DNA from: an uncultured Alphaproteobacteria bacterium
Lineage (GTDB): Bacteria > Pseudomonadota > Alphaproteobacteria > CAAHEQ01 > UBA3637
Assembly (NCBI GenBank): GCA_944392125.1
Contig: CALXVP010000001.1
Location: forward strand, 132,325-196,324
Reading direction: 5' to 3'
DNA: 64,000 bases
Below the pieces are notes generated by a model. The model searched no databases. It was not told where the DNA came from and saw only the letters and a list, made by a program, of their open reading frames with translations. Made by a program: the position numbers and the translations under genes. Shown piece after piece: positions 1,979 through 50,619 of this stretch (position 1 is its first letter; each line of letters begins with the position of its first letter).

Positions 1979-4861
1979 TCAATGCTGTTTACACGTATAA
2001 CCCGTAATCACGCCATCGGCATTTGTGGATGCAACAGCCTCACGGTTATCGCAACTATTGCATAATGCAACGGACTCGCTATCCGTCCCGATAGTGCGAT
2101 TGCCACCCTCACTGCATAACAAGCAATTTCCGTTGGAATCTTGCCACAACCCCGGCACACATTCTTCAACACATTTTGCCGTGAGGTTATTTGTGGCACT
2201 ATTGCCGAGCGTCATTTCACGGCGATTATCGCAAGAATCGCAAAGATTATCTTCATTCGGATTCACGGCAACATTCTTTTCCGAACAATCACGACATGTA
2301 TTATTTGTATCTAAAAACTGGTGTGTTTCTTCGCATTTACCGTATTGACACAACCCGTTACTATATCGTCTGTTTGCGCATAAATTGCATTGTGCGACTC
2401 CGGCACCCGGAGACACCTTTTCATCCGAACATGAATAGCACTTATAATCGTTTCCACGAAACAACTCTCCATCATGATCACCGTCAAGATAAGGCTGAGC
2501 CTTTGCTTTTATATCCTCATTCAAGTCATCAATTAAGGGACCATCTAAACTACTGCATATTCCACTACCATTATTACCGGGTGCAACTTTAACACATTTG
2601 CCATCAATTATCATCCGATTACCACATGCCAAGCATGAAGATTGCGCTATGGAATTATCACTGACTGTTGGTGTATCCTCTCCATCGCAATGATAACATT
2701 TTCCTGTATTACTTTGATAATAATCACTGTCTGCCGGACACTCTTTACGGGCACAATATCTTCCATATAATTGATGCGTTTCGCCACAAATTTTTTCACA
2801 GTCATCAGGAATTAAGGGAATAAATTGATCCGAACTAGAACAAGAAACGCATCCGTATGTATAACTGCCATCCTGTATCTCATCACTATCACAAACTGGT
2901 AAACATCTCCAATGTCCATTCGGATCTTGACCCTTCCATCGCTGTATTAGCGAGGATTTACAATTCGTTTCGCAACTCATGTCATCTTCATCAATCAAAA
3001 CACCCCCATTTTGTGTACAAGGATAACACTTTCCGTCTTTTCCTTTAAATTGATTTTCAGAACATACTTCTTCATACGAGCAATAAAATCTCAAATCATC
3101 TTGTCTGATAACTTTTCGACCGCATAATTCACACATTGTTTTTGCTTCCTCATCATTTGCCCAAATGATATTAGAGTTAATTATATCATTACATTTCAGG
3201 CACTGACTGGATGCGTTTTGCCAAACGCGATTACAATTTACTGGATCATCACATGAATCTGGCGCATCCGTCGGTTGTTCACAATTAACAACACAGTATA
3301 TCCATCCAACTCTAAATAATCTAGCACTTCTATTTGAACATTCATTGCATAATTGGTTTAAATAATCAGAATTTATATTGTTTGAAATTAAACCACCATT
3401 TATTTGAATATTATATGCAGAAGAATCAGCATCACACGAAACACATTTCCCATAATCAGTTTCTAAAAATTGGTTGTCACTGCAAGAAGTTTTTGATGCA
3501 CAATAATAACTTGCATTACTCATAATTTTAAACCAGAATCTATCCTCGCCACAAGCTAAACATTGCGCTTTTGAGACAGTATCACCGCTAATAGTATGCG
3601 GTGTTTTATCCGAGCAAGGCACACAGCCTGCGCCGTCGCTTGCTTGATATGTATATCCGTTTGTGCAAGCGTAAGAGCAATACGCTTTTTCATCGTCTAC
3701 ATCCCCGTAGTATCTCGTTGGGTTGTTGCACGCTGCGCATTGCTCTTTCCCCGACTTTGTATCCTTAAAATTTAACGCACTGTTCTCAAACGGTGTTAAA
3801 CTCACCAGAAAATTATTCGGATTACTGCATGGCACGCAAACGCCGTTTGGCGTGCGAAACTCTTTCCCAAACGCACATTCCGCAGGCACTTCCACGCAGG
3901 TGTTCGTTATCTCCGAACACGTATAATTTGTGCCTTTCTCGGCACAGTCTTTCGGCGTTAGACACTCCACACAGGCGCATTGCTCTTGATTGCAGTAAGG
4001 CGTGCTTGCATTTCCACTGCATTCATCGCGACACGTTAATGTATTTTCATCACACGTCGGCGTTCCGCAACAGGAACTGCAATCTCCGTCTTCCACACAG
4101 TTTTCATTGATGAGTGAATCCGATTCACTATTCAAAAAGATCGTAAACACCATTTCATTTTGAATATTGCCGTTTATATCTCCGCAAATAGCTACATCGC
4201 CCGTATATTTTGTGCCGTTCACTTGCACAAACTGCAATCCTTTAATGACGTTTATCAACGGCATATTTAAGACGCTTTTACAAATCCGCGAACTCACTTC
4301 GCCCACAAATACCCGAAATGCCACATCGGGTTTAGATTGCATAGATATCGGAAAGCCCGACGCTGTGGTTTGCGCAAATTCTAAAAAATCTTTTCCGCTC
4401 TCGCTCGGTTCGGGTAACGGCATTCGCTGATACCGATTCCATATATCCGTTGCTCGCAGATTCACTTCATAGATAATATCGTTTGACCGATATTTTTCCA
4501 TGGCATACCGATAGCCTGCAATTCCCGCAACCGACAACACACCAATCACCGCCAACACGCCCAGCATTTCTACCATACTCCGACCGCATTCGGCTAAATA
4601 CATACCCCTTAATCCGTTCAATCCGTGCAATCCCCGCACATTCCTTAATCCACTTAATCCATGCAACCCGCAAAATCCGCCAAATCCACGTTGCGTTTGT
4701 GATTCTGGTGAATATTCCGCTTTTTGATTGTTTTTCAAGCGCGTGAGACTATTTTGATTCGCTGATTTTATCTCTTGTTTTGCGCGATTCGCCTCAAATT
4801 CCCTGTTTTTTACTTTTTTTGCATAAAAAGAAGCCACGTTAACTATTTGTTTTATTTTCAT
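1979..4861 (-). CDS. giant cysteine-rich protein with a type IV pilin-like N-terminal domain (class III signal peptide ...ECG|RSMVEMLGVLAVIGVLSVAGIAGYRYAM) and many CxxC-containing repeats; the true start is probably internal
   Basis: Prepilin-peptidase motif: G-1, E+5, hydrophobic helix, G14 and Y24 at pilin-conserved positions. More than 90 Cys with a recurring K/QCxxC periodicity. The annotated 93-aa leader contains GLHGLSGL/GLHGLNGLRG encoded by roughly 9-nt repeats. Paralogous to the gene at 16830-18500. Confidence 0.55.
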   Translation of the reverse strand: MKIKQIVNVASFYAKKVKNREFEANRAKQEIKSANQNSLTRLKNNQKAEYSPESQTQRGFGGFCGLHGLSGLRNVRGLHGLNGLRGMYLAECGRSMVEMLGVLAVIGVLSVAGIAGYRYAMEKYRSNDIIYEVNLRATDIWNRYQRMPLPEPSESGKDFLEFAQTTASGFPISMQSKPDVAFRVFVGEVSSRICKSVLNMPLINVIKGLQFVQVNGTKYTGDVAICGDINGNIQNEMVFTIFLNSESDSLINENCVEDGDCSSCCGTPTCDENTLTCRDECSGNASTPYCNQEQCACVECLTPKDCAEKGTNYTCSEITNTCVEVPAECAFGKEFRTPNGVCVPCSNPNNFLVSLTPFENSALNFKDTKSGKEQCAACNNPTRYYGDVDDEKAYCSYACTNGYTYQASDGAGCVPCSDKTPHTISGDTVSKAQCLACGEDRFWFKIMSNASYYCASKTSCSDNQFLETDYGKCVSCDADSSAYNIQINGGLISNNINSDYLNQLCNECSNRSARLFRVGWIYCVVNCEQPTDAPDSCDDPVNCNRVWQNASSQCLKCNDIINSNIIWANDEEAKTMCELCGRKVIRQDDLRFYCSYEEVCSENQFKGKDGKCYPCTQNGGVLIDEDDMSCETNCKSSLIQRWKGQDPNGHWRCLPVCDSDEIQDGSYTYGCVSCSSSDQFIPLIPDDCEKICGETHQLYGRYCARKECPADSDYYQSNTGKCYHCDGEDTPTVSDNSIAQSSCLACGNRMIIDGKCVKVAPGNNGSGICSSLDGPLIDDLNEDIKAKAQPYLDGDHDGELFRGNDYKCYSCSDEKVSPGAGVAQCNLCANRRYSNGLCQYGKCEETHQFLDTNNTCRDCSEKNVAVNPNEDNLCDSCDNRREMTLGNSATNNLTAKCVEECVPGLWQDSNGNCLLCSEGGNRTIGTDSESVALCNSCDNREAVASTNADGVITGYTCKQH

Positions 4862-5185
4862 TTTTCTTTCTCCCCATTCTTCATAAAGGTCCGTTTATGT
4901 AGAGGGAGAACAGCACAAAATCGCCCCGCGAAATGAAATTTCAAAAAATTATTATTTTACAAGTAGATATTCATATTTAAATTTTTACTTGATTATTTTA
5001 AAAATACCCTTATAATCCTCTTTATACTATATCATCTAGACGGACCTTTTTGTAGAGTGAATCACTGCTGACCGTAAAATCCGTGATTTTAGATAAATTC
5101 ATTGTTTCGTTCCCTATTCTAAACGCGCCAATGCCCTTGTCGGAAAAATAGGTGTATCCGATTGTGCGCTTTTAAAAAAGTGAAT

Positions 5186-9467: not shown

Positions 9468-9977
9468 ATGAATATTGAAAATGCTATTTTACAGCGTCGC
9501 TCAATTCGTCAATACGAAAAAGGGGCTCACGTTTCGCAAGATGATTTACACCGCATTTTGCGTTCTGCCATGTATGCGCCGAGCGCTATGAATCGTCAAC
9601 CATGGGAATTTTATGTGGCAACGGAAGAGTCTCTTTTGCAAACAATTCAGACCATTCATCCGCATTGTGCTTTCTTGACAGATGCCGGAACCGGTATTAT
9701 CGTTTGCATTGATACGGAAAAAGAATATGCCGGCATGGGCATTATTGATGTCTCTCTTGCTTCTCAAAACTTAATGTTGGAAGCCTATGCGCTCGGCTAT
9801 GGCACCTGCTACTGCGGTATCAGCGAAGAACAATCCGTTGCCTTACAACAGTTGCTTTCCATGCCGAAAACAATTAAACCCAGCGGATTGATTGTTCTCG
9901 GAAAACCACTTAATGCTACCGAACATACACCGTCTGAAAGATTCAATCCAAATGCCGTGCATTTAAATAAATGGTAA
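9468..9977 (+). CDS. nitroreductase-family protein
   Basis: The RRSIRQY motif at the N-terminus and the nitroreductase-fold length (169 aa). Confidence 0.75.
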   Translation: MNIENAILQRRSIRQYEKGAHVSQDDLHRILRSAMYAPSAMNRQPWEFYVATEESLLQTIQTIHPHCAFLTDAGTGIIVCIDTEKEYAGMGIIDVSLASQNLMLEAYALGYGTCYCGISEEQSVALQQLLSMPKTIKPSGLIVLGKPLNATEHTPSERFNPNAVHLNKW

Positions 9978-10074
9978 ACAAGGCGAATTTTAAAAATTCT
10001 TCTCACCAAAAACCCCGATTGTGCGTAAAGCCAATCGGGGCGATTTTTTTTATTCTATATCACACATTACTTCT

Positions 10075-11127
10075 TTACTGTCGGTCAGCCGTATTCTCTG
10101 CTTTCGGTGCCGTATTTTCCTGAGCATTATCTGCTTTTTTCGGCGTTTTTTTGGCCTTTTTCAAGACGGCTCGCCAATTTTGAACATTCTTTTGATGCCC
10201 GGCATACGTTTCCGAAAAGTTATGTCCGCCCTTACCGTTCGCAACAAAATAAATATACTTTGTTTCTGCCGGTTGCAAAACGGCTTGAATGGCGGCGCGC
10301 CCCGGATTTGAAATGGCGCCTTTCGGCAATCCCTTGATATAATAGGTGTTATACGGGCTGGGATGCTTTAAGTCTTTATAAGTTAACGAACGCTTTAAAT
10401 CATACTTCCCGTTTGTCAAAGCATATAAAACCGTCGGGTCGGATTGAAGTGGCATTCCTTTATTTAAACGATTCACAAATGCCGAAGCGATGAGCGGTCT
10501 TTCTTTTGCCAACGCTGTTTCTTTTTCAACAACAGAGGCTAAAATAACCGCCTCTTCCGGTGTGTCAATCGGTAAATTTTCCGCCCGTGTTTCCCATAAC
10601 TCCGCCACCGTGCGTTGCATGGCATTTTTCATGCGTGTAATCATACCGTCTTTAGTGTCGCCGTATGAGTAATGGTATGTATCGGGCAACAAAGTGCCGT
10701 CTTTCGGAACTTGCGAAACTTCGCCCGTTAATCCTTTTGCTTTATCCAACAGCGCAACAATTTGATGAGAACTTAACCCCTCGGGCACTTTGAATTTGCG
10801 AATATACGTTTGCCCACCCACTAAAATATCCATCACCATTTTGGCGCTTGAATGTTTGGGAAACGAATATTCGCCCGCTTTGATTTTACTCAAATTACCG
10901 CTGGCTCGCACACCCAACATAAAAACGGACGGACTTGCAATAACCCCCTCGCGATAGAGCAATCTGGCAATCTGTTTCAAGCCCTTCCCTTTGGGAATAT
11001 AAACTTCCTTATGCGCCGTCAGCGGTCCTTCGGAAACAAATTGCGAGTAAGTTGTAAAAACACTGCCCCCGATAAGGGAGGCTAAAATAAAAACAATAAA
11101 AAAATAAATAAAAACTCTTTGGCGCAT
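10075..11127 (-). CDS. mltG: endolytic murein transglycosylase MltG (YceG family)
   Basis: N-terminal TM anchor and YceG-like domain motifs (IPEGLSSHQIVALL, QSDPTVLYAL, YNTY...GLP). Confidence 0.85.
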   Translation of the reverse strand: MRQRVFIYFFIVFILASLIGGSVFTTYSQFVSEGPLTAHKEVYIPKGKGLKQIARLLYREGVIASPSVFMLGVRASGNLSKIKAGEYSFPKHSSAKMVMDILVGGQTYIRKFKVPEGLSSHQIVALLDKAKGLTGEVSQVPKDGTLLPDTYHYSYGDTKDGMITRMKNAMQRTVAELWETRAENLPIDTPEEAVILASVVEKETALAKERPLIASAFVNRLNKGMPLQSDPTVLYALTNGKYDLKRSLTYKDLKHPSPYNTYYIKGLPKGAISNPGRAAIQAVLQPAETKYIYFVANGKGGHNFSETYAGHQKNVQNWRAVLKKAKKTPKKADNAQENTAPKAENTADRQ

Positions 11128-11355
11128 ATAAAATCCTTTTTATGTCTTTTACCATATCTTTCCTCAAAACGCAAGCAAAATCCCGTGTACTCAACTCAAA
11201 CCGTTGTAGACAAAAATCCGCCCAGCATTCTTTTCGCCCCATTTAAAACAAGAAAGATACACAATAATTCTCTGTTTTTATTATACGATTATCAAAACAA
11301 CTTGACTTTTTTAAAAAAATATGTCAATTTAATTACCTATTCATAAGGAGGAAAA

Positions 11356-11784
11356 ATGGAGATTCAACCCAATTGTTTTAATGAGATTCAACAAGCCTAT
11401 TTTCAAAATGCCACTCTGAAATTTGATAGCATAAGCCTATTGCAAACACTGCGCACCGGCTCCCCGAATGCCGTCAGTTTGGGCATGGGCGATACGGTTT
11501 TACATCTTTATGTCCGCGGTTATGCCGGTGGCAAATTCAAAGATATTATTCCGGAAGATATTTTAAATCACAAGCCCCATATCAATCCCTTTATACGCAA
11601 TAAAGAGGGGTTAACGGCGTCAACACTTTTAAAGGTTTTACTGACACATCAGTCTATCAACTACCAGAAAAATCAACTCTATCAAACATTAGTTTCATAC
11701 GAAAAATGCTTTGCGGAAAAAAGATTGTGTTTAAAGCCGAATTTGATGAAATACCGTTGCGAACAAAGAGAGCGCGATTGCTAA
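11356..11784 (+). CDS. hypothetical protein, possibly ankyrin-repeat-like
   Basis: GDTVLHLYVRGYAGG ... NKEGLTASTLLKVLLTH resembles ANK repeats. Weak. Confidence 0.25.
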   Translation: MEIQPNCFNEIQQAYFQNATLKFDSISLLQTLRTGSPNAVSLGMGDTVLHLYVRGYAGGKFKDIIPEDILNHKPHINPFIRNKEGLTASTLLKVLLTHQSINYQKNQLYQTLVSYEKCFAEKRLCLKPNLMKYRCEQRERDC

Positions 11785-15768: not shown

Positions 15769-16602
15769 ATGAAAACAGGAATTATGGCAGGCAAAAAAGG
15801 CCTGATTATGGGTGTGGCGAACGATCACTCAATCGCATGGGGTATTGCAAAAGCAATGGCTGACCAAGGGGCGGAAATTGCCTTTACGTATCAAGGTGAA
15901 ACATTGGAAAAACGGGTGCGCCCGTTAGCGGAATCCATCGGATCGGATATTTTGATTCCGTGCGATGTGTTAAACAGCGAATCCATGGATAATGCTTTTA
16001 AAATGATTAAAGAAAAATGGGGAAAGTTGGATTTTGTTGTCCACGCCATCGCTTTTTCGGATAAGAACGAATTAAAGGGACGGTATGTTGATACATCGGC
16101 AGCGAACTTTTCAAATTCCATGTTAATTTCATGTTATTCATTCACGGATGTTTGCCGTCGCGCATCAGAATTGATGGTAGATGGCGGTGCATGTTTAACA
16201 CTCACATATCTCGGCGCTGAAAGATACTTGCCGAACTACAATGTAATGGGTGTAGCCAAAGCAGCATTAGAAGCTTCTATTCACTTTATTGCATTTGATT
16301 TGGGCCATCAAAACATTCGTGTGAACGCTATTTCGGCGGGTCCGATTCGCACATTGGCCGCTGCCGGTATCGGCGACTTCCGTCAAATTTTGGGCTGGAC
16401 GGAAAATAACTCCGCTTTGTGCCGGAATGTGACGATTGAAGATGTCGGCAAGGCAGGTATGTTCCTCTGCTCCGATTTATCATCCGGAATTACGGGAGAA
16501 ATTGTGCACGTAGACGCAGGGTATAACAAAAACGCCATGATTAACCCGAAGAATGCACAAAAATCGGCGGAATTATTAGCTTCATTCAAACTTTCGGAAT
16601 AG
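15769..16602 (+). CDS. fabI: enoyl-[acyl-carrier-protein] reductase (NADH)
   Basis: GKKGLIMGVANDHSIAWGIAKAM Rossmann N-terminus and FabI-type SDR motifs (LTYLGAERYLPNYNVMGVAKAALE). Confidence 0.9.
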   Translation: MKTGIMAGKKGLIMGVANDHSIAWGIAKAMADQGAEIAFTYQGETLEKRVRPLAESIGSDILIPCDVLNSESMDNAFKMIKEKWGKLDFVVHAIAFSDKNELKGRYVDTSAANFSNSMLISCYSFTDVCRRASELMVDGGACLTLTYLGAERYLPNYNVMGVAKAALEASIHFIAFDLGHQNIRVNAISAGPIRTLAAAGIGDFRQILGWTENNSALCRNVTIEDVGKAGMFLCSDLSSGITGEIVHVDAGYNKNAMINPKNAQKSAELLASFKLSE

Positions 16603-16829
16603 ACTAAAACCAAAGTGAATTTATTTTTTAACAATCCTCGTTTAACGCGGGGATTGTTTTTTTTCACTATAACACCTCTTTATGCGATAAATCAAAATAA
16701 TAAAAATAAAATCACGATTCGTCTTTTTTCAAAAAAAGCCCTCAATATGGCTTTGATTTGCGAAAATATAGTTGACGAAGCATGGAAATTTTTATAAAAT
16801 ACTGTAAATTGTTTTTATAAATAAAATGC

Positions 16830-18500
16830 ATGAATATACAGATACACAAAATTACGGGAGACGGAATGAAAAAAACGATTTCTTTTTTTAAACAAATAGG
16901 TTGTCTAGAGCAAGAGAGTATACAAAGCAAAATGCCTCATCACTCGGCTTTGTCCACTGATTTTCCTGCGATACACACCGAGAAAGCCGAATCGGGGCGA
17001 TCCATGGTGGAAATACTGGCGGTGTTGGCGATTATGGGCGTGTTGGCCGTTGTGGGGATTGTGGTTTATAAATACGCCATGGATAAACACCGCGCCAATA
17101 CGATTTTACAAGATGCACATCTCGGCTTTGCCTCTATCAGAGGCACACGTGCCGAACAATTTGATTGGACGCCCGTTAATTTTGAGCCTAAAAGCGGAAA
17201 GCCCGTTGATGTTTTGCGCGATTCCGATAGAGATGACTATGTGCGCGTGCAAGAAATTGAACTTTCGGTTTGCAAACAAATTTTATTGATGGCCGTTCCG
17301 GGGAAATTGATGTTTTACGATGAACAAGGCGAAGATATGCTTACCTGCCCCGATGAATTAAACACGATTATCTTTGCGTTTGAGGGCACACGGGCGCCGG
17401 GCGTCAACTGCGAAACGGGCACCGACTGCGAGGGCGAAGGCGAAGGCGCATATTGCAATATGGATAAAGGAGTTTGTCGCACCTGCCCTGTGGAAGAAGG
17501 ATTTGTTGTCAGCCCGAACGGAGAGGCTTGTTGGCCTGTTTGCGATGAAGATACCGAAACAACCTGTATGACGGACACCGAACGTTGGTGTTGCAATAAC
17601 GAAACCGAGCTTTGCGGAGATGAAGCAGGCGTGTGCGAACTTTCAAGCGGTGTTTGCGAATATCGGTTAAAATCTCAAACAAGCGAAAAAGAGGCTGATT
17701 GCAGTTATCGGTATGAAAACCAAACCAGTAAAAAATATTCTGAGTGTGAATGCAAATTTACAAACCAAACTAGTGAAAAATATGCTGATTGCAGTTACGA
17801 AAGTTCTGGCACAGCCGAAAATTTCAAACTGAACCTCATAAAAGGGTGTCCCAGTGGACAATATTGTTATTTGGCATACTCGGACGACAGTTGTGAAAAT
17901 TCACTGGGTAGCGCAGGTGCTTCAATCATGCATGGCACATGCACGGCTTGGGCAATGACAAATCCGTCGTGCCGTATCCGTTCATTGGGGGATGTGTTGT
18001 CTTCGTGTACAACATGTCCAAACGGGCAATATTGCTATCTAGCATACAAGGATGATCAGTGTGAGCAAACTCTTGGCAGTGAGGGTGCAGCCACTATGTA
18101 CGGAACATGTACGGCTTGGGCAATGACAAATCCAACTTGTCGTATTAAAGAATTGAGCGGGGTTGTTACACCAATTCAAACGTGTCCAAACGGGCAATAT
18201 TGCTATTTGGCTTATCAAGATGAAGGTTGCGAATCCTCACTGGGCAGTACCGGAGCGGAGATCATGTACGGTGCTTGCACGGCTTGGGCAATGACAAATC
18301 CAACTTGCCCAATTAAATGGTTGGATACTGATATACTGACGCCCGTGGAAAAATGCCCAAGTAGTAAGTACTGCTACTTAAAATATGCGTCACCCGGTTG
18401 TGTGGATCCTGTAGGTTCAACCGGTTCAGACCCAATTTATGGTGTTTGTATTCCAGGAAACTCCAATAATGCAAACTGTCCTAGTGAGAGTTCAGAATAA
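16830..18500 (+). CDS. cysteine-rich tandem-repeat protein with a type IV pilin-like N-terminus (…ESG|RSMVEILAVLAIMGVLAVVGIVVYKYAM); paralogue of 1979-4861; the real start is probably internal (for example M35 at about 16932)
   Basis: Same class III signal-peptide motif as the 960-aa protein. Four C-terminal roughly 55-aa repeats (CPNGQYCYLAY...GTCTAWAMTNPTCRI). The stop overlaps the avd start (TAATG). Confidence 0.55.
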   Translation: MNIQIHKITGDGMKKTISFFKQIGCLEQESIQSKMPHHSALSTDFPAIHTEKAESGRSMVEILAVLAIMGVLAVVGIVVYKYAMDKHRANTILQDAHLGFASIRGTRAEQFDWTPVNFEPKSGKPVDVLRDSDRDDYVRVQEIELSVCKQILLMAVPGKLMFYDEQGEDMLTCPDELNTIIFAFEGTRAPGVNCETGTDCEGEGEGAYCNMDKGVCRTCPVEEGFVVSPNGEACWPVCDEDTETTCMTDTERWCCNNETELCGDEAGVCELSSGVCEYRLKSQTSEKEADCSYRYENQTSKKYSECECKFTNQTSEKYADCSYESSGTAENFKLNLIKGCPSGQYCYLAYSDDSCENSLGSAGASIMHGTCTAWAMTNPSCRIRSLGDVLSSCTTCPNGQYCYLAYKDDQCEQTLGSEGAATMYGTCTAWAMTNPTCRIKELSGVVTPIQTCPNGQYCYLAYQDEGCESSLGSTGAEIMYGACTAWAMTNPTCPIKWLDTDILTPVEKCPSSKYCYLKYASPGCVDPVGSTGSDPIYGVCIPGNSNNANCPSESSE

Positions 18501-18868
18501 TGTCTTCTCGGAGTGAACTTTTACCGATATACATAGCCTGTTACCGTTTAACGCAGGAAATTTTTTCGTGTACGATAAAATTTCCAAAAGAGTATAAATT
18601 TCTCTTAGGACAGTCATTAAATGAAAACGCCTTAAATTTATGCTGTTTAATTTCTCGCATAAACCAAATGACACAAAAGGGAACGTATTTTGAGGACTTT
18701 TTTGCGACATTTGAACGTGTGCGGATAGAATTACGTTTGAGTGCAGATTTTAATTTACTGAGCTTAAAAAAACAAGCGCATCTGGCAGTTATGCTTGAAG
18801 ATATCCATACTCAAGCGCTTGCTTGGAGGAGAAGCAACTTAAAAAAGGAGGAAAAAACGATTACATAA
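18500..18868 (+). CDS. avd: DGR accessory variability determinant (Avd-like four-helix-bundle protein)
   Basis: 122 aa. LPIYIACYRLTQEIFSCTIKFPKEYKFLLGQSL matches the Avd / four-helix-bundle family pattern. Position is immediately upstream of the TR and RT. Confidence 0.75.
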   Translation: MSSRSELLPIYIACYRLTQEIFSCTIKFPKEYKFLLGQSLNENALNLCCLISRINQMTQKGTYFEDFFATFERVRIELRLSADFNLLSLKKQAHLAVMLEDIHTQALAWRRSNLKKEEKTIT

Positions 18869-19030
18869 TCGGCCGGAGTCAGGGAAAATTCCGAATTATC
18901 CTGAGTGAGCTATATTTTAATTTTAAAAGGGTCAGTCACCAAATGATGTTTAGTAGAATTAAACGATATTTGGTATATATAATAGTATTGACTTATTCAC
19001 GGAAGATTTTTATCTTCTATAACGCCTTAG

Positions 19031-19118
19031 GCGTTAATCTTTCTTCCGGAGATGTGAACAACAACAACCGTAACAACACTAACTACGCAGTTTGTCAGTA
19101 GGTTAGGCGCCGCTTTTA
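19031..19118 (+). repeat. DGR template repeat (TR, 19031-19101) plus a conserved 3' IMH-like extension gttaggcgccgctttta (19102-19118)
   Basis: Near-identical to the 3' end of the minus-strand gene 20461-20871. Every mismatch maps to an adenine in this copy. It is A-rich (AAC)n, and its translation (…NNNNRNNTNYAVCQ) appears as the spurious ORF 18823-19101. Confidence 0.85.
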
Positions 19119-19141
19119 AAATTAAAATTTAATAAATTGAT

Positions 19142-20440
19142 ATGGAACAGATTGATTTTTTTAACTTATTATCTGATTTAACACTTGAAGATGTATTTCA
19201 AGCGTATTTTGAGTGTCGCCGAAACAAAAGGCGCACGCTATCGTCTTTAAATTTTGAAATGAACTACGAACAAAATTTAATTCAACTATGGAAAGACATA
19301 ACGCAAAGGCGCTATCAACTAGCTGATTCTAATGCTTTTATTGTAAAATATCCTGTCCCACGAGAAGTATTTGCAGCACAATTTAGAGATAGAATTGTTC
19401 ATCATCTCGTAATTGGACGGTTATTACCGCATTTTGAAAAAGCTTTTTCAGATTATTCATATAGTTGCCGCGCTGGGAAAGGAACATTGTATGGCATTCG
19501 TGACATAGAAGAAATGCTCAAAATTTGCTCTAAAAATTACACAAAAAATTGTTTTGTTTTACGTTTAGACATTGAGGGTTTTTTCTTCCATATCGACAAA
19601 CGAATATTGCATAAACAAATTATATCACTTGTTAATAATTCCTATTTTAAATCAAATAAATCCACAATACTCTATCTTATTGACTTAATTTTAAACGATA
19701 AACCAACAATTCACTGCAAAAAAAAGACGCCGCAAAACAGTTGGAAAAATTTACCAAGAACAAAAAGCCTATTTTATGCAGATAGGGATTGTGGCTTGCC
19801 TATCGGAAATTTAACAAGCCAAATTTTTGCAAATTTTTATTTAAACGGGTTAGACCATTACATCACACAACTGAATCCGGAATTGTTCTATGGCCGGTAC
19901 GTGGATGACATGGTACTTATTCATTCCGACAAAGAATACCTGTGCCACGTAAAAAACTTAATTCAAACTTATCTTCATAATAACTTAAACCTTAATTTAC
20001 ACCCTAAAAAAATAGTCTTACAACACTACGGAAAAGGCTTTTTATTCATTGGAGCATACATTCTTCCAAATCGAACATATCCGTCCAAAAGGCTACAAAA
20101 ATCTTTTTATAGGCGAATTTCATATCTGAATAACCTGTGGAAAAATAAAAATATGAATACAGTTGAAAAAGAATTGGTAAATAAAACATTATGTATCTTA
20201 AATTCCTATTTTGGGCTACTTAGGAACTTCAATTCTTGGCGTATTAAACTGAAAGGTTGGAATATGCTTTCTCCCGAAATAAGAGAGGTTTTTTTTAGTG
20301 ACTTAAATTTTTCAAAAGTCAAAATTTGCGATAAAATGAAAGAAAGGTTTAGAGTTGAGGCACGTAACATTCTGCAGCCCCCGCTAATGGGGCTGCAAAA
20401 TAAAACCGCCTTTTTAAAAAGGCGGTTTAAGAAAAAATAA
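19142..20440 (+). CDS. diversity-generating retroelement reverse transcriptase
   Basis: RT motifs, including YVDDMVLI (YxDD) and the DGR-diagnostic LPIGNLTSQIFANFYL (SQ replaces the group II intron QGxxxSP). 432 aa with no maturase or endonuclease domains. Adjacent TR/VR pair. Confidence 0.9.
   Translation: MEQIDFFNLLSDLTLEDVFQAYFECRRNKRRTLSSLNFEMNYEQNLIQLWKDITQRRYQLADSNAFIVKYPVPREVFAAQFRDRIVHHLVIGRLLPHFEKAFSDYSYSCRAGKGTLYGIRDIEEMLKICSKNYTKNCFVLRLDIEGFFFHIDKRILHKQIISLVNNSYFKSNKSTILYLIDLILNDKPTIHCKKKTPQNSWKNLPRTKSLFYADRDCGLPIGNLTSQIFANFYLNGLDHYITQLNPELFYGRYVDDMVLIHSDKEYLCHVKNLIQTYLHNNLNLNLHPKKIVLQHYGKGFLFIGAYILPNRTYPSKRLQKSFYRRISYLNNLWKNKNMNTVEKELVNKTLCILNSYFGLLRNFNSWRIKLKGWNMLSPEIREVFFSDLNFSKVKICDKMKERFRVEARNILQPPLMGLQNKTAFLKRRFKKK
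20382..20436. promoter_or_regulatory. two strong hairpins inside the 3' end of the RT coding region (tgcagcccc-N7-ggggctgca at 20382-20406; aaaccgccttttt/aaaaaggcggttt palindrome at 20410-20436), immediately 3' of the VR/IMH on the target strand
   Basis: Seen directly. Their position relative to the IMH resembles the hairpin/cruciform element that enhances DGR homing. They could also terminate the convergent transcripts. Confidence 0.4.
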
Positions 20441-20443: not shown

Positions 20444-20534
20444 TAAAAGCGGCGCCTAACCTACTGACAAACTGCGTAGTAAGTGGTGTAACGGCCGACG
20501 TCGTTGACCACATCTCCGGAAGAAAGATTAACGC
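20444..20534 (-). repeat. DGR variable repeat (VR, 20461-20534) plus IMH (20444-20460, gttaggcgccgctttta)
   Basis: Reverse complement aligns to TR 19031-19118. Differences are only at TR adenines (aac to gtc/gac/ggc/tac/acc), plus one extra codon relative to the TR. Confidence 0.85.
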
Positions 20535-20871
20535 GGTACGCATTTGTAGTACCAGACCCTAAGCTAGACCAAACCCACTTGTCCGGTCCCATACTGACTA
20601 CATTTGGGCAACTACCGGAAGCAGATCCTCCCAACCAGCGTTCCTCTTCACTAATGTAACAAATATCGTCCATTGAAGCCAATTCCATTCCTTGTGATTC
20701 ACACCATGTGAACGCACTCCACCAGTTCACACTAACATCACTCACACAAAAGGTTTTGCCGTTTTTACCAGTAAACATTTCGCCATCATTGCAAGTGCCT
20801 GCCCATACGGATTGAGATACCAATACGGTATAAAGTGTTAATCCAAGTAACCAAATATAATTTTTTCTCAT
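20461..20871 (-). CDS. DGR target protein: small secreted C-type-lectin-fold (CLec) protein with the VR at its C-terminus (…GDVVNDVGRYTTYYAVCQ)
   Basis: Signal peptide (LLGLTLYTVLVSQSVWA). CTLD-like motifs (WCESQGMELAS, WLGG, WVWS). The VR encodes the last roughly 24 aa, and the stop codon is followed directly by the IMH. Confidence 0.8.
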   Translation of the reverse strand: MRKNYIWLLGLTLYTVLVSQSVWAGTCNDGEMFTGKNGKTFCVSDVSVNWWSAFTWCESQGMELASMDDICYISEEERWLGGSASGSCPNVVSMGPDKWVWSSLGSGTTNAYRVNLSSGDVVNDVGRYTTYYAVCQ

Positions 20872-35442: not shown

Positions 35443-35700
35443 TTTTTACTCAAAATATCTAAATTATCTTATCGGCAACATATCTGATATTTTAAAAATA
35501 ATCAACCGCTATTTCAAATTTTTAAAAAGGATTCTCCTTGCGCATATACATATTGAAAATTTTTGTTTTCCCGAAAAAAGAGTCTCAAAAACAATTATTA
35601 TCCGAAAAATATAATTTTTTATGTATTTTTTAATGGACATTTGATTTTGTTTCTTGTATAAAAGGCTCATCATATTTTAATGATGATGAAAGGAAAAAAT

Positions 35701-38700
35701 ATGTCTGATAAACCAAAAATGAAAATGTTGGATGCAAACGAAGCAGCTGCTTTGGTTGCTCACAAATTAAATGAGGTATCCATTATTTATCCGATTACGC
35801 CGTCATCACCGATGGGCGAATGGTCGGATACATGGTCAGCCGCCGGCGTTAAAAACATCTGGGGCAAAGTGCCGGAAGTGTTGGAAATGCAATCGGAAGC
35901 GGGGGCTATCGGCGCCGTTCACGGCTCATTACAAGCCGGTTCCATCACAACCACATATACGGCTTCACAAGGCTTATTATTGATGATTCCGAATATGTTT
36001 AAAATCGCCGGTGAATTAACACCGTTTGTTATGCACGTTGCCGCGCGAACGGTTGCGGGTCATGCGTTATCCATTTTCGGCGACCACTCCGATGTGATGG
36101 CCTGCCGTCAAACGGGATTTGCCATGATTGCTTCTAACTCCGTTCAGGAAGCACAAGATTTCGCAGCGATTGCGCAAATGTCAACTTTCCTTTCACGGAT
36201 TCCGTTTATTCACTTCTTTGACGGATTTAGAACATCTCACGAAATCAACAAAATCAATTTGCTTTCGGATGATGATTTAAAAGCATTGATGGCTGATATT
36301 CCGACAGACTTTACGGCAAAACATGCCTTAAAGCCGGAAGATCCGAAAGTGCGCGGAACGGCACAAAATCCGGACGTTTATTTCCAAATTAAAGAAGCCG
36401 CCAATAAATACTATAACGCTTGCCCGGCCATTGTGGAAAAAGCAATGCGTAAATTTGAAGAAATTACGGGTCGCGCTTATCACTTGGTGGAATATCACGG
36501 CGCTACGGATGCGGAACACATCATTGTTTCCATCGGGTCCAGCGTTGAAACGGCCGAAGAAACAATCAAAGCATTAAATGCCAAAGGCGGAAAATACGGC
36601 GTTATCGGTATTCACTTGTATCGTCCGTTCCCGAAAGAAGCCTTCATTAACGCTATGCCGAAAACGGTAAAATACGTTTCTGTTTTGGATAGAACAAAAG
36701 AATCCGGCTCCGTCGGCGAACCGTTGTATTTGGACGTTGTTTCCACATTGGCGGAAGGTGTTGCAAACGGAACGGTTGCTTCTATGCCGAAAGTGTTGGG
36801 CGGACGTTACGGTTTATCTTCAAAAGAATTTACGCCGGCAATGGTCAAGGCCGTTTTGGAAAATACACAAAAAGCGCACTTTACGGTCGGTATTGATGAT
36901 GATGTGACGAACTTGTCATTATCTTATGACCCGACGTTTGATATTGAAGGCGATGACGTCAGTCGTTGTATTTTCGTCGGACTCGGTTCGGACGGAACGG
37001 TCGGTGCCAACAAAAACTCAATTAAAATTATCGCTGACGGGGATGATTATTTCGGACAAGCTTACTTTGTGTATGATTCCAAAAAGTCGGGCGGTATGAC
37101 AACTTCTCACTTGCGTTTCTCAAAGAAACCGATTAAAGCACCGTATTTAATCAGTCAAGCGGGATTTGTTGCCTGCCACCACATGCCGTTCTTATTTAAA
37201 ACGGATATATTAACATACGCCAGTAAAAATGCCGTTTTCTTGATTAACTCAACGGAACCTGCCGATAAAGTATGGGATAGTTTGCCGATTGAAGTGCAAC
37301 AAGAAATCGTTGATAAGAATATTAAATTATATGCGATTGATGCCGTAGACGTTGCGGCCAAAACGGGTATGGGCCGTCGGATTAACACGATTATGCAAAC
37401 GTGTTTCTTTGCCATTTCGGGCGTATTACCGCGTGAAGAAGCCATTGAAAAAATTAAAAAGGCCATTCAAAAAACATACGCACGCAAAGGTCAGGAAATT
37501 GTTGATGCGAATATTAAAGCCGTTGACGCTTCTTTGGCTCACTTGCATGAAATCAAAATCGGTGCCGTGAACTCTGTTCACAGACGTCAACCGGGTATCC
37601 CGACAACGGCTCCCGAATTACTGCAAAAAGTAACAGGAAAAATCATTGAAGGTCGCGGGGAACAATTACCCGTCAGCGCCTTTGAATGGACGGCGGACGG
37701 CACATGGCCGACGGATACGGCAAAATACGAAAAACGCCGGATTGCAACGGAAATTCCGGAATGGGATCCCTCGGTTTGTATTCAATGCGGCAAGTGCGTA
37801 TCGGTTTGTCCGCATGCTGCCATTCGGGCAAAAGTCTTTTCACCGGACGAACTCAAAAATGCGCCGAAAGACTTTAAATGCGCCGATTACAAAGGCAAAG
37901 AATTTGCGGGAGATAAATATGTGGTTCAAGTAGCGCCGGAAGATTGCACGGGCTGTTCACTTTGCACACAGGTTTGCCCGGCAAAGAATAAGGCAAATCC
38001 GGAGAAGAAAGCCGTCAATATGGTTCCGATTGAAACACACTTGGATGCTGATATTGAAAACTTTGATTTCTTCATGTCGTTGCCTGATGTAGATCGCACA
38101 AAGTTGTCGCCGAAGCAAATTAAGTCGGTGTCATTGATGCGTCCGTTGTTTGAGTTCTCGGGAGCGTGTGCCGGTTGCGGTGAAACACCGTATGTTAAGA
38201 TGATGACGCAATTATTCGGTGATAGATTGTTGGTTGCCAATGCAACGGGTTGTTCATCAATTTACAGCGCTAACTTGCCGACAACGCCGTATGCCAAAAA
38301 TGCGGAAGGTCGCGGTCCGGCCTGGGCAAACTCTTTGTTTGAAGATAATGCCGAATTCGGTTTGGGTATGCGCACATCCGTTGACGCCAAGACAGTCTTT
38401 GCCCTGCAATTATTAGCCGAGATGAGTGCTGATTTAGGGCAAGAACTGGTTGATGCAATTGTTTCGGCCGATCAATCGACGGAAGAAGGCATTATGGCAC
38501 AACGCACCCGCGTTCAAACGCTCAAAGATAAATTAACGGCGATGAATACGGAAAAAGCCAAATTGTTGCTTGATAATGCCGATTATCTCGTCAAGAAATC
38601 CGTTTGGATTTTAGGCGGAGACGGTTGGGCTTATGATATTGGCTACGGCGGTTTAGACCATGTGTTGTATTCGGGAAAGAATGTCAACATTATGGTAATG

Positions 38701-39243
38701 GACACCGAAGTTTACTCCAACACGGGCGGACAACGTTCAAAAGCAACACCGATCGGGGCATCAGCTAAATTTGCCATCGCCGGCAGTGAATTACCGCGTA
38801 AAGATTTGGGTATGATTGCGATGTCGTCAGGGGGTGTCTATGTTGCGAGCATTTCACTCGGTGCAAAAGATGCCCATGCTTTGCAAGCTATGAACGAAGC
38901 CGAAAGTTTCAATGGTCCTTCATTGATTATCGCATACAGCCATTGTATTTCACATGGTTATGATATCGGTAAGATGGGTCTGGAACATCAGAAGATGGCT
39001 GTTGAAACCGGTTTGTGGCCGTTGTATCGGTTTGACCCGCGTCGGGCCGAGCAAGGTTTAAATCCGTTCCAATTGGATAGTAAACCAACTCGTCCTGTTG
39101 CAGACTTTATGGCAACCGAAACACGGTTTAAAGCAGTCAAACAAAGCAATCCTGCTCATTATGAGGAGTTGGTTGCCAAAGCACAGGCTCAAATTGAACA
39201 ACGCTTCAAATTATATAACAGATTGGCAAATAACGCCGATTAA
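35701..39243 (+). CDS. nifJ: pyruvate:ferredoxin (flavodoxin) oxidoreductase, single-polypeptide PFOR
   Basis: About 1180 aa. Two 4Fe-4S ferredoxin motifs (CIQCGKCVSVCP; CTGCSLCTQVCP). TPP-binding GDGW...motif near the C-terminus. RBS upstream of the ATG at 35701. Confidence 0.93.
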   Translation: MSDKPKMKMLDANEAAALVAHKLNEVSIIYPITPSSPMGEWSDTWSAAGVKNIWGKVPEVLEMQSEAGAIGAVHGSLQAGSITTTYTASQGLLLMIPNMFKIAGELTPFVMHVAARTVAGHALSIFGDHSDVMACRQTGFAMIASNSVQEAQDFAAIAQMSTFLSRIPFIHFFDGFRTSHEINKINLLSDDDLKALMADIPTDFTAKHALKPEDPKVRGTAQNPDVYFQIKEAANKYYNACPAIVEKAMRKFEEITGRAYHLVEYHGATDAEHIIVSIGSSVETAEETIKALNAKGGKYGVIGIHLYRPFPKEAFINAMPKTVKYVSVLDRTKESGSVGEPLYLDVVSTLAEGVANGTVASMPKVLGGRYGLSSKEFTPAMVKAVLENTQKAHFTVGIDDDVTNLSLSYDPTFDIEGDDVSRCIFVGLGSDGTVGANKNSIKIIADGDDYFGQAYFVYDSKKSGGMTTSHLRFSKKPIKAPYLISQAGFVACHHMPFLFKTDILTYASKNAVFLINSTEPADKVWDSLPIEVQQEIVDKNIKLYAIDAVDVAAKTGMGRRINTIMQTCFFAISGVLPREEAIEKIKKAIQKTYARKGQEIVDANIKAVDASLAHLHEIKIGAVNSVHRRQPGIPTTAPELLQKVTGKIIEGRGEQLPVSAFEWTADGTWPTDTAKYEKRRIATEIPEWDPSVCIQCGKCVSVCPHAAIRAKVFSPDELKNAPKDFKCADYKGKEFAGDKYVVQVAPEDCTGCSLCTQVCPAKNKANPEKKAVNMVPIETHLDADIENFDFFMSLPDVDRTKLSPKQIKSVSLMRPLFEFSGACAGCGETPYVKMMTQLFGDRLLVANATGCSSIYSANLPTTPYAKNAEGRGPAWANSLFEDNAEFGLGMRTSVDAKTVFALQLLAEMSADLGQELVDAIVSADQSTEEGIMAQRTRVQTLKDKLTAMNTEKAKLLLDNADYLVKKSVWILGGDGWAYDIGYGGLDHVLYSGKNVNIMVMDTEVYSNTGGQRSKATPIGASAKFAIAGSELPRKDLGMIAMSSGGVYVASISLGAKDAHALQAMNEAESFNGPSLIIAYSHCISHGYDIGKMGLEHQKMAVETGLWPLYRFDPRRAEQGLNPFQLDSKPTRPVADFMATETRFKAVKQSNPAHYEELVAKAQAQIEQRFKLYNRLANNAD

Positions 39244-41966: not shown

Positions 41967-42228
41967 GACGTTTCTCCTCGTTTAGTTGGAACGCACATAG
42001 GGTTTCCGTATGTTGCCGTATTTGATTCAATAAATTGTGTGATAACGTTTGTTTCAATTCCGCTTGGGCAACGGCCTCGGCTCTTTGTTGCTCTTTCATT
42101 CCGCATAAATAAGCTACAAAAAGGGAAGCAATCCAGATAAGGAGAATATAAATTATCCGTTGCAAATTATTCCTCGTTTCATCATATCGGCTAAGGTTTT
42201 CGCGCGTTTGCCCACTTGCGTTGCCCAT
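41890..42228 (-). CDS. i-spanin (Rz-like; N-terminal TM + coiled-coil)
   Basis: TM segment IIYILLIWIASLFVAYL followed by a charged helical region. Its 3' end overlaps the o-spanin. Confidence 0.45.
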   Translation of the reverse strand: MGNASGQTRENLSRYDETRNNLQRIIYILLIWIASLFVAYLCGMKEQQRAEAVAQAELKQTLSHNLLNQIRQHTETLCAFQLNEEKRLEKLMEEKPNCQQLLDTDIFDCLPQ

Positions 42229-42575
42229 TTACTCGTTAACATTTCTTGCCCGGCAACGGCAAAATTTCCGATTTCAACGGCTTTCAACATTTTTTTAAAT
42301 CCCTTTAATCGGACCAATCCTAAATTAAAGCACATTTCGCAGATAACGCTTTGTCGCACTTCATCTAAATCGGCATACCAAGGAAATGATGATAAGCATT
42401 CTTGATGACACCGTTGTAAATCATTTTCCAATAAATAGCGCGCCTCGCTTTCGGTAATGCCCACATCGTCTAAATTGCGCCCGATACCGATTGTCAACTT
42501 CCCTGCCGTGCATCGATAAGGTTTTAACTTGACTCCCTCATGGCGTATAACACGCTCAATAAATTCCTCTTTCAT
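42153..42575 (-). CDS. endolysin, glycoside hydrolase family 24 (T4-lysozyme-like)
   Basis: RHEGVKLKPYRCTAGKLTIGIGRNL contains the catalytic Glu/Asp/Thr arrangement of the GH24 lysozymes. Confidence 0.75.
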   Translation of the reverse strand: MKEEFIERVIRHEGVKLKPYRCTAGKLTIGIGRNLDDVGITESEARYLLENDLQRCHQECLSSFPWYADLDEVRQSVICEMCFNLGLVRLKGFKKMLKAVEIGNFAVAGQEMLTSKWATQVGKRAKTLADMMKRGIICNG

Positions 42576-42593: not shown

Positions 42594-42965
42594 TTATTTA
42601 AACAAAAAGGTTCCGATTTCACCAACGGAAACGCCGAATGTGGCACACAACAATGTAATCAATACATAAATAAAAACCTTGTTGCTCAATACTTCTTTTA
42701 ATGTAGCGGAAATGCTGGCGCGATTGGTGCATAATTCCAACACTCTGTCAATTTTGGCATCCAGCGTTTCTACTTTACGCTCAACCGCATCTACTTTCTT
42801 TTCTAAATCCGTCATTCGGTGTTCCAATTTTGAAAAATCTTCACATTGTTTTTCGTGTAATAAAATGGCGGCTTTTGATAAGCCGCCTTTACGTGGTTGT
42901 CCTAAAATTACATCCAGAGCAACCCTTTGTTCACACATTTTTTTCCTCCGATTCATCAACATCAT
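42594..42965 (-). CDS. putative holin / lysis-associated membrane protein (coiled-coil + C-terminal TM)
   Basis: Position immediately upstream of the endolysin. A single C-terminal TM (VFIYVLITLLCATFGVSV). No family-level match. Confidence 0.3.
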   Translation of the reverse strand: MMLMNRRKKMCEQRVALDVILGQPRKGGLSKAAILLHEKQCEDFSKLEHRMTDLEKKVDAVERKVETLDAKIDRVLELCTNRASISATLKEVLSNKVFIYVLITLLCATFGVSVGEIGTFLFK

Positions 42966-43332
42966 GATTTATATTTTTCCACTCATCAAATGTTTGAATT
43001 ACCACATTCGGAAATGCCTCATCACTCGGTAAATCCCGCAAGTATTGCCGATATTGTTTATAGGCTTCTCTTTCTTCTTCCGTTATCGGATAATCAGGAA
43101 GCATAAAAACATCGGTTGATTGCAAAACGGTATCACGCTCGGCTCGCTTTTCCGATTTTTGCAATTCTATCGGTTTTTCGGGAGCATAACCCAATAGATA
43201 CCAACTTCCGTTATAGGCTTGCTCTACTTCTTGTTCAGTCATTCCGATAGATTGATAAAATTCAATATTTGTTCCTGTTCCTACCGAACATTCTTTTGTT
43301 TCTTCATTTTCTATTTTCGCATATTTCAGCAT
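42931..43332 (-). CDS. tail-fibre assembly/chaperone-like protein (paralogue of 45546-45875)
   Basis: The N-terminal 70 aa are about 60% identical to 45546-45875 (NEETKECSVG.GT..FYQSIGM.E..VEQAYNG.WYL.GY.P.KP). Lies directly downstream of a fibre gene. Confidence 0.4.
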   Translation of the reverse strand: MLKYAKIENEETKECSVGTGTNIEFYQSIGMTEQEVEQAYNGSWYLLGYAPEKPIELQKSEKRAERDTVLQSTDVFMLPDYPITEEEREAYKQYRQYLRDLPSDEAFPNVVIQTFDEWKNINHDVDESEEKNV

Positions 43333-49902: not shown

Positions 49903-50619
49903 TCAACAGGTTGTTCCCGTTAAGGAGCAGATAACCACACTGCCCGTCATATCGTCAAAAATCGGTCCGCCGATAGAAATATCGCGTGTTGCCAAACCGG
50001 TTCCGAATTTCTTTTTGAGTTCTTTTTGATATTCGTTATATTCCTCCGTATAATCCATACCGTTACGTTTTAACCAACGGTAAGTGATTCCGAGCTTAAC
50101 AACATATTTATCAAAAATAGGAATATCGGTATTTTTGCTCAAAACGGATTTTTCTTCCATTGTATCGGCATCCGTGCAAATACTGTTTGAACGGTATTGA
50201 AAAACAATTTTCACACCGGCCGGAGGCGGTGTTAAAAATTTAACGGCATTATTTTGAATCTTAAACCGCACGCCGATCGGTGCGCAATTAAAATACTTTT
50301 CGCGCATCCATTGCTCGGGCGTAATGGAACCGATGACTTCTTCCGCCGTATCTTTCACATAAACGGTATTATTTAAAATACAATAAAAATCGGGTGCAAT
50401 TTCCTCTATCGGATAAATTGTTTTATTCGCTACCGTATATAATACACCCTCTTTTGTTAAATCCTGCCAATTACCATAGCGCATCAAGCTATCCAATTCA
50501 TTTTTGGCAACACTCAGAAAAATGGCACTGTGTTGTGAATTTTTATCAAATAAATCCGTCGGACGTTGTGTTGCTGTCACATCTGCAACTTCCTGACATA
50601 TTTCCAAAATACTACTCAT
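49903..50619 (-). CDS. phage hypothetical structural protein
   Basis: ORF in the structural module. Its start overlaps the upstream gene. Confidence 0.3.
   Translation of the reverse strand: MSSILEICQEVADVTATQRPTDLFDKNSQHSAIFLSVAKNELDSLMRYGNWQDLTKEGVLYTVANKTIYPIEEIAPDFYCILNNTVYVKDTAEEVIGSITPEQWMREKYFNCAPIGVRFKIQNNAVKFLTPPPAGVKIVFQYRSNSICTDADTMEEKSVLSKNTDIPIFDKYVVKLGITYRWLKRNGMDYTEEYNEYQKELKKKFGTGLATRDISIGGPIFDDMTGSVVICSLTGTTC

Follow-up and report, generated by a model that had tools for sequence, protein, structure and literature searches.

A 64,000-nucleotide window from contig CALXVP010000001.1 of an uncultured Alphaproteobacteria bacterium (positions below are those of the window; G+C 40.8%) carries a gene whose product begins like a type IV pilin and continues as a long cysteine-rich chain. 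This raises the question of what kind of protein it is and how its bulky part would be displayed. A single open reading frame (ORF) of 960 codons plus stop spans exactly 1979-4861; a preliminary description had located it there, and its strand is here corrected to minus (ATG at 4861, stop at 1981-1979). The ORF is complete and ends in ...GYTCKQH, and an identical 960-aa protein is encoded on a metagenome scaffold of 368,996 bp. Our results indicate that the gene probably encodes a modular type IV pilin-like protein. The protein would be inserted in the inner membrane through its class III signal and cleaved after an invariant Gly by the stand-alone A24 peptidase of the lineage, so that the mature protein would start with Arg and have Glu at position 5. 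The pilin module of about 160 residues, with a long α1 helix and a β-sheet head closed by one disulfide, would then act as the carrier of a thin rod of about 700 residues outside the cytoplasm, composed of a Cys-dense stalk and then ten units with three disulfides each. In this gut-dwelling anaerobe, the rod would most likely resist proteases, which suits the protease-rich gut, and serve in binding or coating; it could be presented either by a type IV filament, at its tip, or by the pilin-like anchor. From the features described below, we infer cleavage, export, disulfide formation and possibly incorporation into a filament, with a putative function as an adhesin, such as the fibre-tip adhesin suggested in the preliminary description, or as a surface coat.

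We analyzed the N-terminal module by alignment and structure prediction. The class III signal core and the α1 helix (G↓RSMVEMLGVLAVIGVLSVAGIAGYRYAMEKYRSN..., arrow marking the predicted cleavage site) lie at 4433-4585 on the minus strand, and the string ECG↓RSMVEMLGVLAVIGVLSVAGIAGYRYAM, quoted in the preliminary description, was found in the translation. In an alignment of 72 sequences, Gly(-1) and Glu(+5) (E12) were invariant. Among 123 family ORFs from fetched DNA, Glu was present at +5 in 122, while +1 was Arg in 118 and Lys in four. The motif (E)xG↓RSM(V/I)E(M/I)LGVLAVIGVLS was nearly invariant across 120 homologues, and Glu(+5) lies within a hydrophobic tract of about 21 residues (RSMVEMLGVLAVIGVLSVAGI). 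Counting from the closest in-frame Met that precedes the invariant Gly, leaders of 6-19 aa were available in most family members (e.g., MQTKFNEIG↓). We then modelled the 960-aa protein from Met87 (874 residues) with AlphaFold on the 72-sequence alignment, and the mean predicted local distance difference test score (pLDDT) was 85.7. The model showed a 51-residue α1 helix (model residues 7-57) followed by a globular pilin head (4112-4432, minus strand) with four β-strands (model residues 85-91, 95-103, 123-128, and 149-156). Two Cys of the head, C108 and C140 in model numbering, were invariant in the same alignment and sit at the position of the C-terminal disulfide of pilins, as a D-region-like pair. 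The top Foldseek matches in the PDB were type IVb pilins with probabilities of 0.95-1.00, namely 9iuf_A, the CFA/III pilus subunit of enterotoxigenic Escherichia coli (ETEC) (1.00), 3fhu_A, PilS of S. Typhi (0.99), and 3s0t_A, CofA (0.95). The family profile also aligned in register, weakly (E 0.42), with the PilA-N geopilin of Geobacter.

The general kind of protein is already known, because modular type IV pilins, some of them with multiple repeats, have been described as a class (PMC8179133). A survey of more than 1,200 such proteins, including PilB and PilC of Streptococcus sanguinis (PMC8179133; Raynaud et al. 2021), contains an 860-residue protein with 12 repeats, and modular pilins are presumed to occupy filament tips and bind ligands (PMC8179133). 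The 960-aa protein, which the preliminary description called exceptionally large, is indeed large, but only in relative terms. It shares with modular pilins an N-terminal class III signal and a small pilin module bearing a bulky extra part. In contrast to them, its family is invisible to their defining signature (IPR012902/PF07963), has Arg at +1, and occurs in many copies per genome outside pilus operons. The extra module of the known proteins is a defined domain not restricted to pilus biology, whereas the extra modules of this family match none; modular pilins lacking a defined extra domain do exist, for example CofB (PMC8179133). CofB, the large minor pilin of ETEC CFA/III, consists of a pilin module followed by extra domains and sits at the pilus tip (PMC8179133), but the extension of the 960-aa protein is predicted to be a cystine-stapled rod, unlike the β-repeat or lectin domains of the type IVb proteins. 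What is new in this branch is its invisibility to the signatures, the Arg at +1, the undescribed Cys-rich units, and the massive expansion within genomes, together with the dispersal of its genes, a 5' cassette common to close paralogues, and the lack of an assembly system in the sampled DNA.

To define the family, we searched with the whole protein and with the pilin module alone. The whole 960-aa protein retrieved 167 homologues of 540-1,150 aa, all annotated as hypothetical, whose named sources were uncultured Alphaproteobacteria. A phmmer search with a 168-residue pilin-module query (window 4100-4603, minus strand) retrieved at least 4,788 representatives of protein clusters (50% identity) at E≤1e-3, with lengths of about 120-1,150 aa, and 563 representatives at E≤1e-10; the clusters with a named source came from uncultured gut Alphaproteobacteria. 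Species-representative genomes contained at least 574 confirmed pilin-module stretches, and among the 80 stretches listed, nearly all belonged to metagenome-assembled genomes (MAGs) of gut Alphaproteobacteria from ruminants, rabbits, and humans, with two labelled otherwise. One MAG held at least 16 family copies within the fetched loci, and the window's own contig held at least five. Plain members of 155-200 aa with two Cys also exist, and they look like ordinary pilins; for one short member (P0205), only a 927-bp contig was retrieved. Some small relatives carry a teneurin-type epidermal growth factor (EGF) domain after the pilin module (P0343, 25.6 bits against a cutoff of 24.3). A eukaryotic mucin-like protein of 5,421 aa (P0139) was rejected as a relative and attributed to a chance, repeat-driven match; it matches the pilin head (query residues 55-97) 16 times through a CysD-like repeat (W..W.DV..P.P..GSGDFETF....GYPIC). 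The 960-aa gene is one of many family genes per genome, which share the carrier, and in close paralogues also the 5' cassette, but have very different extracellular parts.

Locus L048 contains four short family genes within about 2.2 kb (15995-18173), three adjoining on the minus strand and one on the plus strand, with mature products of 113-124 aa and 2-4 Cys. The run is flanked by housekeeping genes, a TrmB-like methyltransferase and a glycogen phosphorylase, and it resembles a minor-pilin or pseudopilin cluster. At locus L058, a 385-aa family member is directly trailed by a 159-aa ORF overlapping its end (9743-11360, the ORF at 10881-11360), which we take to be C-type-lectin-like. The two may be a single frameshifted gene, and if so, this would hint that some family members carry lectin ends of the type found with diversity-generating retroelements (DGRs).

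Several observations weigh against the assignment to type IV pilins. Pfam and NCBIfam searches gave no match of the 960-aa protein to PF07963 (N_methyl) or TIGR02532 at E≤1, and the 556-aa paralogue in the window scored below threshold with both (11.2 bits against a cutoff of 21.2, and 10.4 bits against 16.3, respectively). The hydrophobic, N-methylated residue of type IV pilins at +1 (Phe, Met, Leu, or Val) is replaced by Arg, which to our knowledge is unprecedented among pilins. Type IVb pilins tolerate residues other than Phe at +1 as well as longer leaders. In structure, the pilin module comes closest to these pilins (CofA/CFA-III, S. Typhi PilS), but their identity is 11-13%, their TM-scores to the model are 0.38-0.49, and the E-values of the fold matches lie between only 5e-3 and 6e-2, modest values that reflect the use of the entire 874-residue model as query. 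Near the 960-aa gene, no type IVb operon (ATPase, secretin) was seen. Family genes, long or short, stand singly or in runs of up to five amid housekeeping genes. Motif scans of 1.38 Mb of family-flanking DNA, a few per cent of these genomes, together with Pfam scans covering the window and several loci, gave no GspE/PilB/TadA ATPase, platform protein, secretin, or canonical or Flp-like pilin, and none was found in about 110 kb of the window's own contig. No A24 peptidase was present in the 64-kb window or in the other roughly 45 kb of that contig. Finally, a subunit as large as 90 kDa would have to cross the outer membrane. On balance, we conclude that the N-terminal module has a pilin fold and signal but represents a divergent branch with a basic +1 residue; the preliminary assignment holds as far as the module behaves like a type IV pilin, but the prepilin methylation signature itself (PF07963, TIGR02532) is missing.

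Of the GspE-type ATPase, GspF, secretin, A24, and canonical or Flp pilin motifs scanned, only A24 peptidases turned up. At locus L058, a gene at 2942-3646 near a family member scored 54.7 bits with Peptidase_A24 (cutoff 26.5). A search with this peptidase retrieved 165 homologues about 230 aa long, of which one, from an Alphaproteobacteria MAG, carries the name prepilin peptidase. Its gene was always found in the neighbourhood of yqeY, followed by A24-rodZ-prfA-prmC (also at L087 and L088, at about 10001-10740), and only the peptidase domain was matched, with no N-terminal methyltransferase region detected in the protein. The gene neighbourhoods of long members, short members, and the peptidase are all housekeeping. 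The check for pilus assembly genes suggested in the preliminary description thus yielded a stand-alone A24 peptidase in related genomes, but no other assembly genes in the sampled DNA. A literature search on pili of the host lineage returned nothing useful.

These results bear on the strongest alternative, in which the pilin module is a mere membrane anchor or export tag and the protein, cleaved or not, stays tethered in the inner membrane or cell envelope and never polymerises; the lineage may then lack any type IV filament. The absence of assembly genes from every sampled region fits this explanation, as do the dispersal of family genes singly amid housekeeping genes, the housekeeping location of the A24 peptidase, and the many members per genome with very bulky ectodomains (at least 16 in one MAG). 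There is also precedent for class III signals on non-pilus proteins: the sugar-binding proteins of the Sulfolobus 'bindosome', which are not pilus subunits, have a prepilin-type signal that places large functional ectodomains on the cell surface (PMC3047682). That archaeal structure requires a dedicated Bas assembly system, whereas the 960-aa family keeps a full pilin head and shows no assembly system in the sampled DNA. The sample amounts to only a few per cent of each host genome, however, and conservation extends beyond the helix alone to the full pilin head and its disulfide pair. Moreover, the plain 155-200-aa members look like ordinary filament subunits, and runs of 3-5 adjoining family genes (three or four short ones in L048) resemble minor-pilin operons. 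We therefore regard a pure anchor as possible but unlikely, and favor the modular type IV pilin-like protein.

We next consider the Cys-rich extension. The 960-aa protein contains 80 Cys (8.3%), 78 of them after the predicted cleavage site, fewer than the "over 90" given previously. All the CxxC strings cited at that time are in the translation, which has 20 CxxC motifs in total. Composition-keeping shuffles of the 710-aa Cys-rich part gave 8.0 ± 2.5 CxxC, and about one shuffle in 20,000 attained 20, indicating that the enrichment exceeds what the Cys content alone explains. Directly after the pilin head lies a Cys-dense stalk with 14 Cys in about 78 aa (3878-4111, minus strand; pLDDT 67-75), for which no Pfam match was found. 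The remainder (1982-3877, minus strand; pLDDT about 90) was resolved by unit alignment into ten tandem six-Cys units of 48-86 aa each, into which the CxxC motifs sort, bearing out the reiterated modules proposed earlier. The units follow the pattern C(a)-x(11-14)-C(b)xxC(c)-x(14-29)-C(d)xxC(e)-x(10-20)-C(f), with the consensus C-[PV]-x-G-x-[FWY]-x(4-6)-G-x-C-x-x-C at the start. Shifting the start of the unit one Cys earlier gives six Cys everywhere and explains why the protein ends three residues past a Cys; all ten units hold the six, and the third is additionally trailed by two extra Cys. In the models, a helix lies between the two CxxC motifs, with the second CxxC at the C-terminal end of this helix.

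The pairing of the Cys was examined from their joint loss across 72 homologues × 10 units. All six Cys were kept in 648 unit instances. In 33 instances, distributed over four different units, c and e were absent together (pattern 110101); in 8 instances, also over four units, a and b were absent (001111); and in 3 instances, a, b, c, and e were absent (000101). None of the loss patterns predicted by other Cys pairings was found in this set. The pattern 011111 occurred in 22 instances, mostly within one poorly aligned unit. This pairwise co-loss points to disulfides a-b, c-e, and d-f, which implies, at the level of sequence covariation, units stapled by disulfides 1-2, 3-5, and 4-6 and not zinc sites. 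The number of Cys after the Gly was even in 85 of 94 complete family ORFs, but because the units hold an even number of Cys, parity alone cannot separate disulfides from metal sites.

We also weighed the possibility that the CxxC...CxxC pairs are metal sites of the zinc-ribbon, treble-clef, or rubredoxin-like M(Cys)4 kind, in which case the rod would be a string of about ten metal-binding fingers. The unit profile does match GATA-type zinc fingers (GATA-3, E 2.3e-5; best single-finger match GATA-2 at 0.0015, i-Evalue 0.0018), its other matches are almost all zinc ribbons (S27e, L37e, eIF5, Rpb12), and the whole-protein profile matches a CXXC zinc finger at E 0.054, but Cys spacing alone would give such matches. 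The anaerobe-type metabolism of the host, with a pyruvate:ferredoxin oxidoreductase (PFOR), could make the envelope less oxidising, and the CxxC-rich variant-specific surface proteins (VSPs) of Giardia bind zinc substoichiometrically (PMC2996952). However, 36 unit instances (33 × 110101 and 3 × 000101) lack the second Cys of both CxxC, two of the four in such a site, while keeping d and f, and in 33 of the 36, b is retained too. Such loss would be fatal to a Cys4 site but not to disulfide pairs. The helix also precedes the second CxxC, which lies at its C-terminal end in the models and not in the first turn as in treble clefs, and Foldseek gave no zinc-finger match. Zinc-finger identity of the units was set aside on the co-loss pattern and the position of the helix, and we consider metal sites improbable.

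Pfam and NCBIfam searches with the whole protein, the unit region, the stalk, and several homologues gave nothing except Ephrin_rec_like (PF07699; E 0.95, 9.7 bits against a cutoff of 23.1). The domain search of the C-terminal region thus returned no family above cut-off, and the large disulfide-rich modular extension noted earlier is real and matches no characterised family in Pfam, NCBIfam, or Foldseek. A three-unit model (pLDDT 92.6) had no fold match by Foldseek (best E 1.8 in the PDB and 0.6 in BFVD), and the VSP, Furin-like, and TNFR Pfam models gave no match at E≤10. Like the repeats of tumour necrosis factor receptors (TNFR), furin-like proteins, and ephrin-receptor-like proteins, the six-Cys unit begins C-P-x-G-x-aromatic and has a CxxC, but its Cys spacings are longer, a helix lies between the CxxC motifs, the Pfam score is far below cutoff, and Foldseek found no match. 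TNFR repeats have a 1-2, 3-5, 4-6 topology, as inferred for the units. That the units are a horizontally acquired eukaryote-type module (divergent TNFR, furin-like, ephrin-receptor-like, or related to Giardia VSPs) is highly improbable: the consensus and putative connectivity are those of TNFR-type A1-B2 modules, the sole Pfam hint is Ephrin_rec_like, small relatives carry the teneurin-type EGF above cutoff, and ankyrin-repeat genes lie nearby, but that hint is well below its cutoff, the three Pfam models named above are silent, the confident model finds no PDB fold, and the Cys spacings are unlike TNFR. The six-Cys unit, confidently predicted yet lacking a match among solved structures by Foldseek, may instead be a new disulfide-rich module.

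Ankyrin-repeat and pentapeptide-repeat proteins and a coupling protein of a type IV secretion system (TraG/VirD4-like) were observed near family members (L091 16093-21921; L088 18524-20738; L048 2968-3942; L006 16417-18150). Such neighbours hint at a lifestyle of interaction with eukaryotes.

We then examined the translation start and the DNA upstream of it. The ATG at 4861, preceded by a GGGGAG box 8 nt upstream, yields a 93-aa leader (4583-4861, minus strand) that is predicted to end at the invariant Gly; alternatively, translation may start at an internal ATG at 4603, which would give a 7-aa leader, MYLAECG↓. The long form of the leader was present in about 38 homologues. In the alignment of paralogues, variable columns in the leader stretch fell 18, 11, and 15 times on codon positions 1, 2, and 3, showing no bias, and in five loci conservation extended about 200 nt upstream of the leader ORF into clearly non-coding DNA. 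These two results indicate that the long leader is probably conserved as DNA and not as protein. We therefore doubt the 93-aa leader as a functional peptide; judged from its sequence, it is probably part of a DNA cassette common to the paralogues, which may be a promoter, a 5' UTR, or a site of recombination. The conserved non-coding part of this 5' cassette (4862-5058, minus strand) starts abruptly at ACTCTACAAAAAGG and has 164 of 196 columns invariant across the five paralogous loci. A promoter scan placed a weak sigma-70-like site inside it (4981-4954, minus strand). Just upstream of the Gly codon lies an array of 9-nt GGATTNNNN units (4611-4687, minus strand), whose copy number varies between paralogues. 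The entire cassette of about 400 nt, seen at window 4611-5058 and at loci L001, L007, L024, and L029, is about 85-90% identical among paralogues whose mature proteins are about 30% identical. Its role could lie in common regulation, or it could serve as a substrate for recombination.

At a distance of 12 kb from the 960-aa gene, as noted previously, the window carries another gene that has this pilin module (16830-18500, plus strand). It encodes a 556-aa family member, and the helix identity of roughly 70% reported for the pair was confirmed by counting from the alignment (25/38, 66%). The paralogy holds over the first ~128 residues or so (35% identity, E 1e-16), but the Cys-rich C-terminal parts are unrelated. 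Within the C-terminus of the 556-aa protein, 17843-18317 holds three 139-nt copies placed 168 nt apart start to start, which encode a 56-aa period (CPNGQYCYLAY...CTAWAMTNP.C) and are 68-75% identical, and a fourth, weaker copy is found in the protein.

The stop of the 556-aa gene overlaps the start of avd, and a complete DGR follows: the bAvd gene (18500-18868), a template repeat (about 19030-19120) between bAvd and the reverse transcriptase, and the reverse transcriptase (19142-20440). Its target is a secreted 136-aa ORF (20461-20871, minus strand), opposite in orientation to the reverse transcriptase, which is presumably C-type-lectin-like and whose 3' end contains the variable repeat (about 20461-20560). 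The 3' end of this ORF reads AACGACGTCGGCCGTTACACCACTTACTAC where the template reads AACAACAACAACCGTAACAACACTAACTAC; all differences between template and variable repeat are at template adenines, and the variable repeat is 3 nt longer. The template repeat had no match in either pilin-like gene (score about 29). Hence, unlike DGR variable proteins, the 960-aa and 556-aa genes have no template repeat match, the variable repeat being in ORF 20461-20871. Diversification of the 556-aa paralogue by the DGR was rejected, the template repeat matching the 136-aa ORF only, and the link between one of the two genes and a DGR drawn in the preliminary description is mere adjacency.

A broader reading of the family is suggested by comparison with the VSPs of Giardia. 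Both are Cys-rich proteins of gut anaerobes with frequent CxxC, located at the surface in Giardia (PMC2996952) and putatively so in the 960-aa family, at 3.6-18.6 CxxC per kb of gene in VSPs (PMC2996952) versus 6.9 in the 960-aa gene. Each is a large multigene family in which one short anchoring end is conserved and the ectodomains vary greatly (PMC2996952). VSPs, however, are eukaryotic and anchored by a C-terminal transmembrane helix with CRGKA instead of an N-terminal pilin module, whereas the 960-aa protein has no CRGKA end and no match to the VSP model (PF03302) at E≤10. A speculative and distinctly doubtful possibility is that the family is for bacteria what variant surface proteins are for protozoa, a variable coat with switching or recombination between members, with or without a filament, for which the class III signal would have been co-opted. 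On that view, each genome may have dozens of genes for cystine-stapled, protease-resistant ectodomains of very different sequence, set on one conserved pilin-like carrier that may be processed by the housekeeping A24 peptidase. Close paralogues may be driven by the common 5' cassette of about 400 nt with its variable 9-nt repeat tract, allowing switching or recombination.

The 960-aa gene itself is adjoined by ordinary chromosomal genes, including a convergent pyruvate phosphate dikinase, topoisomerase IV/gyrase subunit A, IalB, RlmN, YceG, a TolC-like protein, and FabI. Between the convergent pyruvate phosphate dikinase gene and the 960-aa gene, a 13-bp GC-rich hairpin with T-runs on both strands (1909-1950) is a candidate bidirectional terminator. 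The window contains genes for PFOR (35680-39243) and pyruvate phosphate dikinase (52-1896), consistent with an anaerobic, gut-adapted metabolism. From about 41800 to 64000, the minus strand carries a prophage-like block, which includes a lysozyme (42153-42575), a tail assembly chaperone (42931-43332), a YadA-stalk-like fibre (45877-46773), an SU10-type adaptor (49903-50619), and a weakly matched P22-like portal (54648-56243), all on the minus strand.

Taken together, these findings describe a very large pilin-like branch that standard pilin signatures miss. It comprises at least 4,788 clusters (50% identity), has a basic +1 residue, and is accompanied by a short A24 peptidase of its own. Because the whole branch escapes those signatures, surveys of type IV filament subunits that use them are incomplete. 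The family is carried by uncultured Alphaproteobacteria from the guts of humans, ruminants, and rabbits and probably makes up much of their cell surface, which makes it a candidate for interaction with host, mucus, phage, or protists and for antigenic diversity. If these genomes have no filament machinery, the family would be a bacterial case in which class III signals are used for surface display and not for pili.

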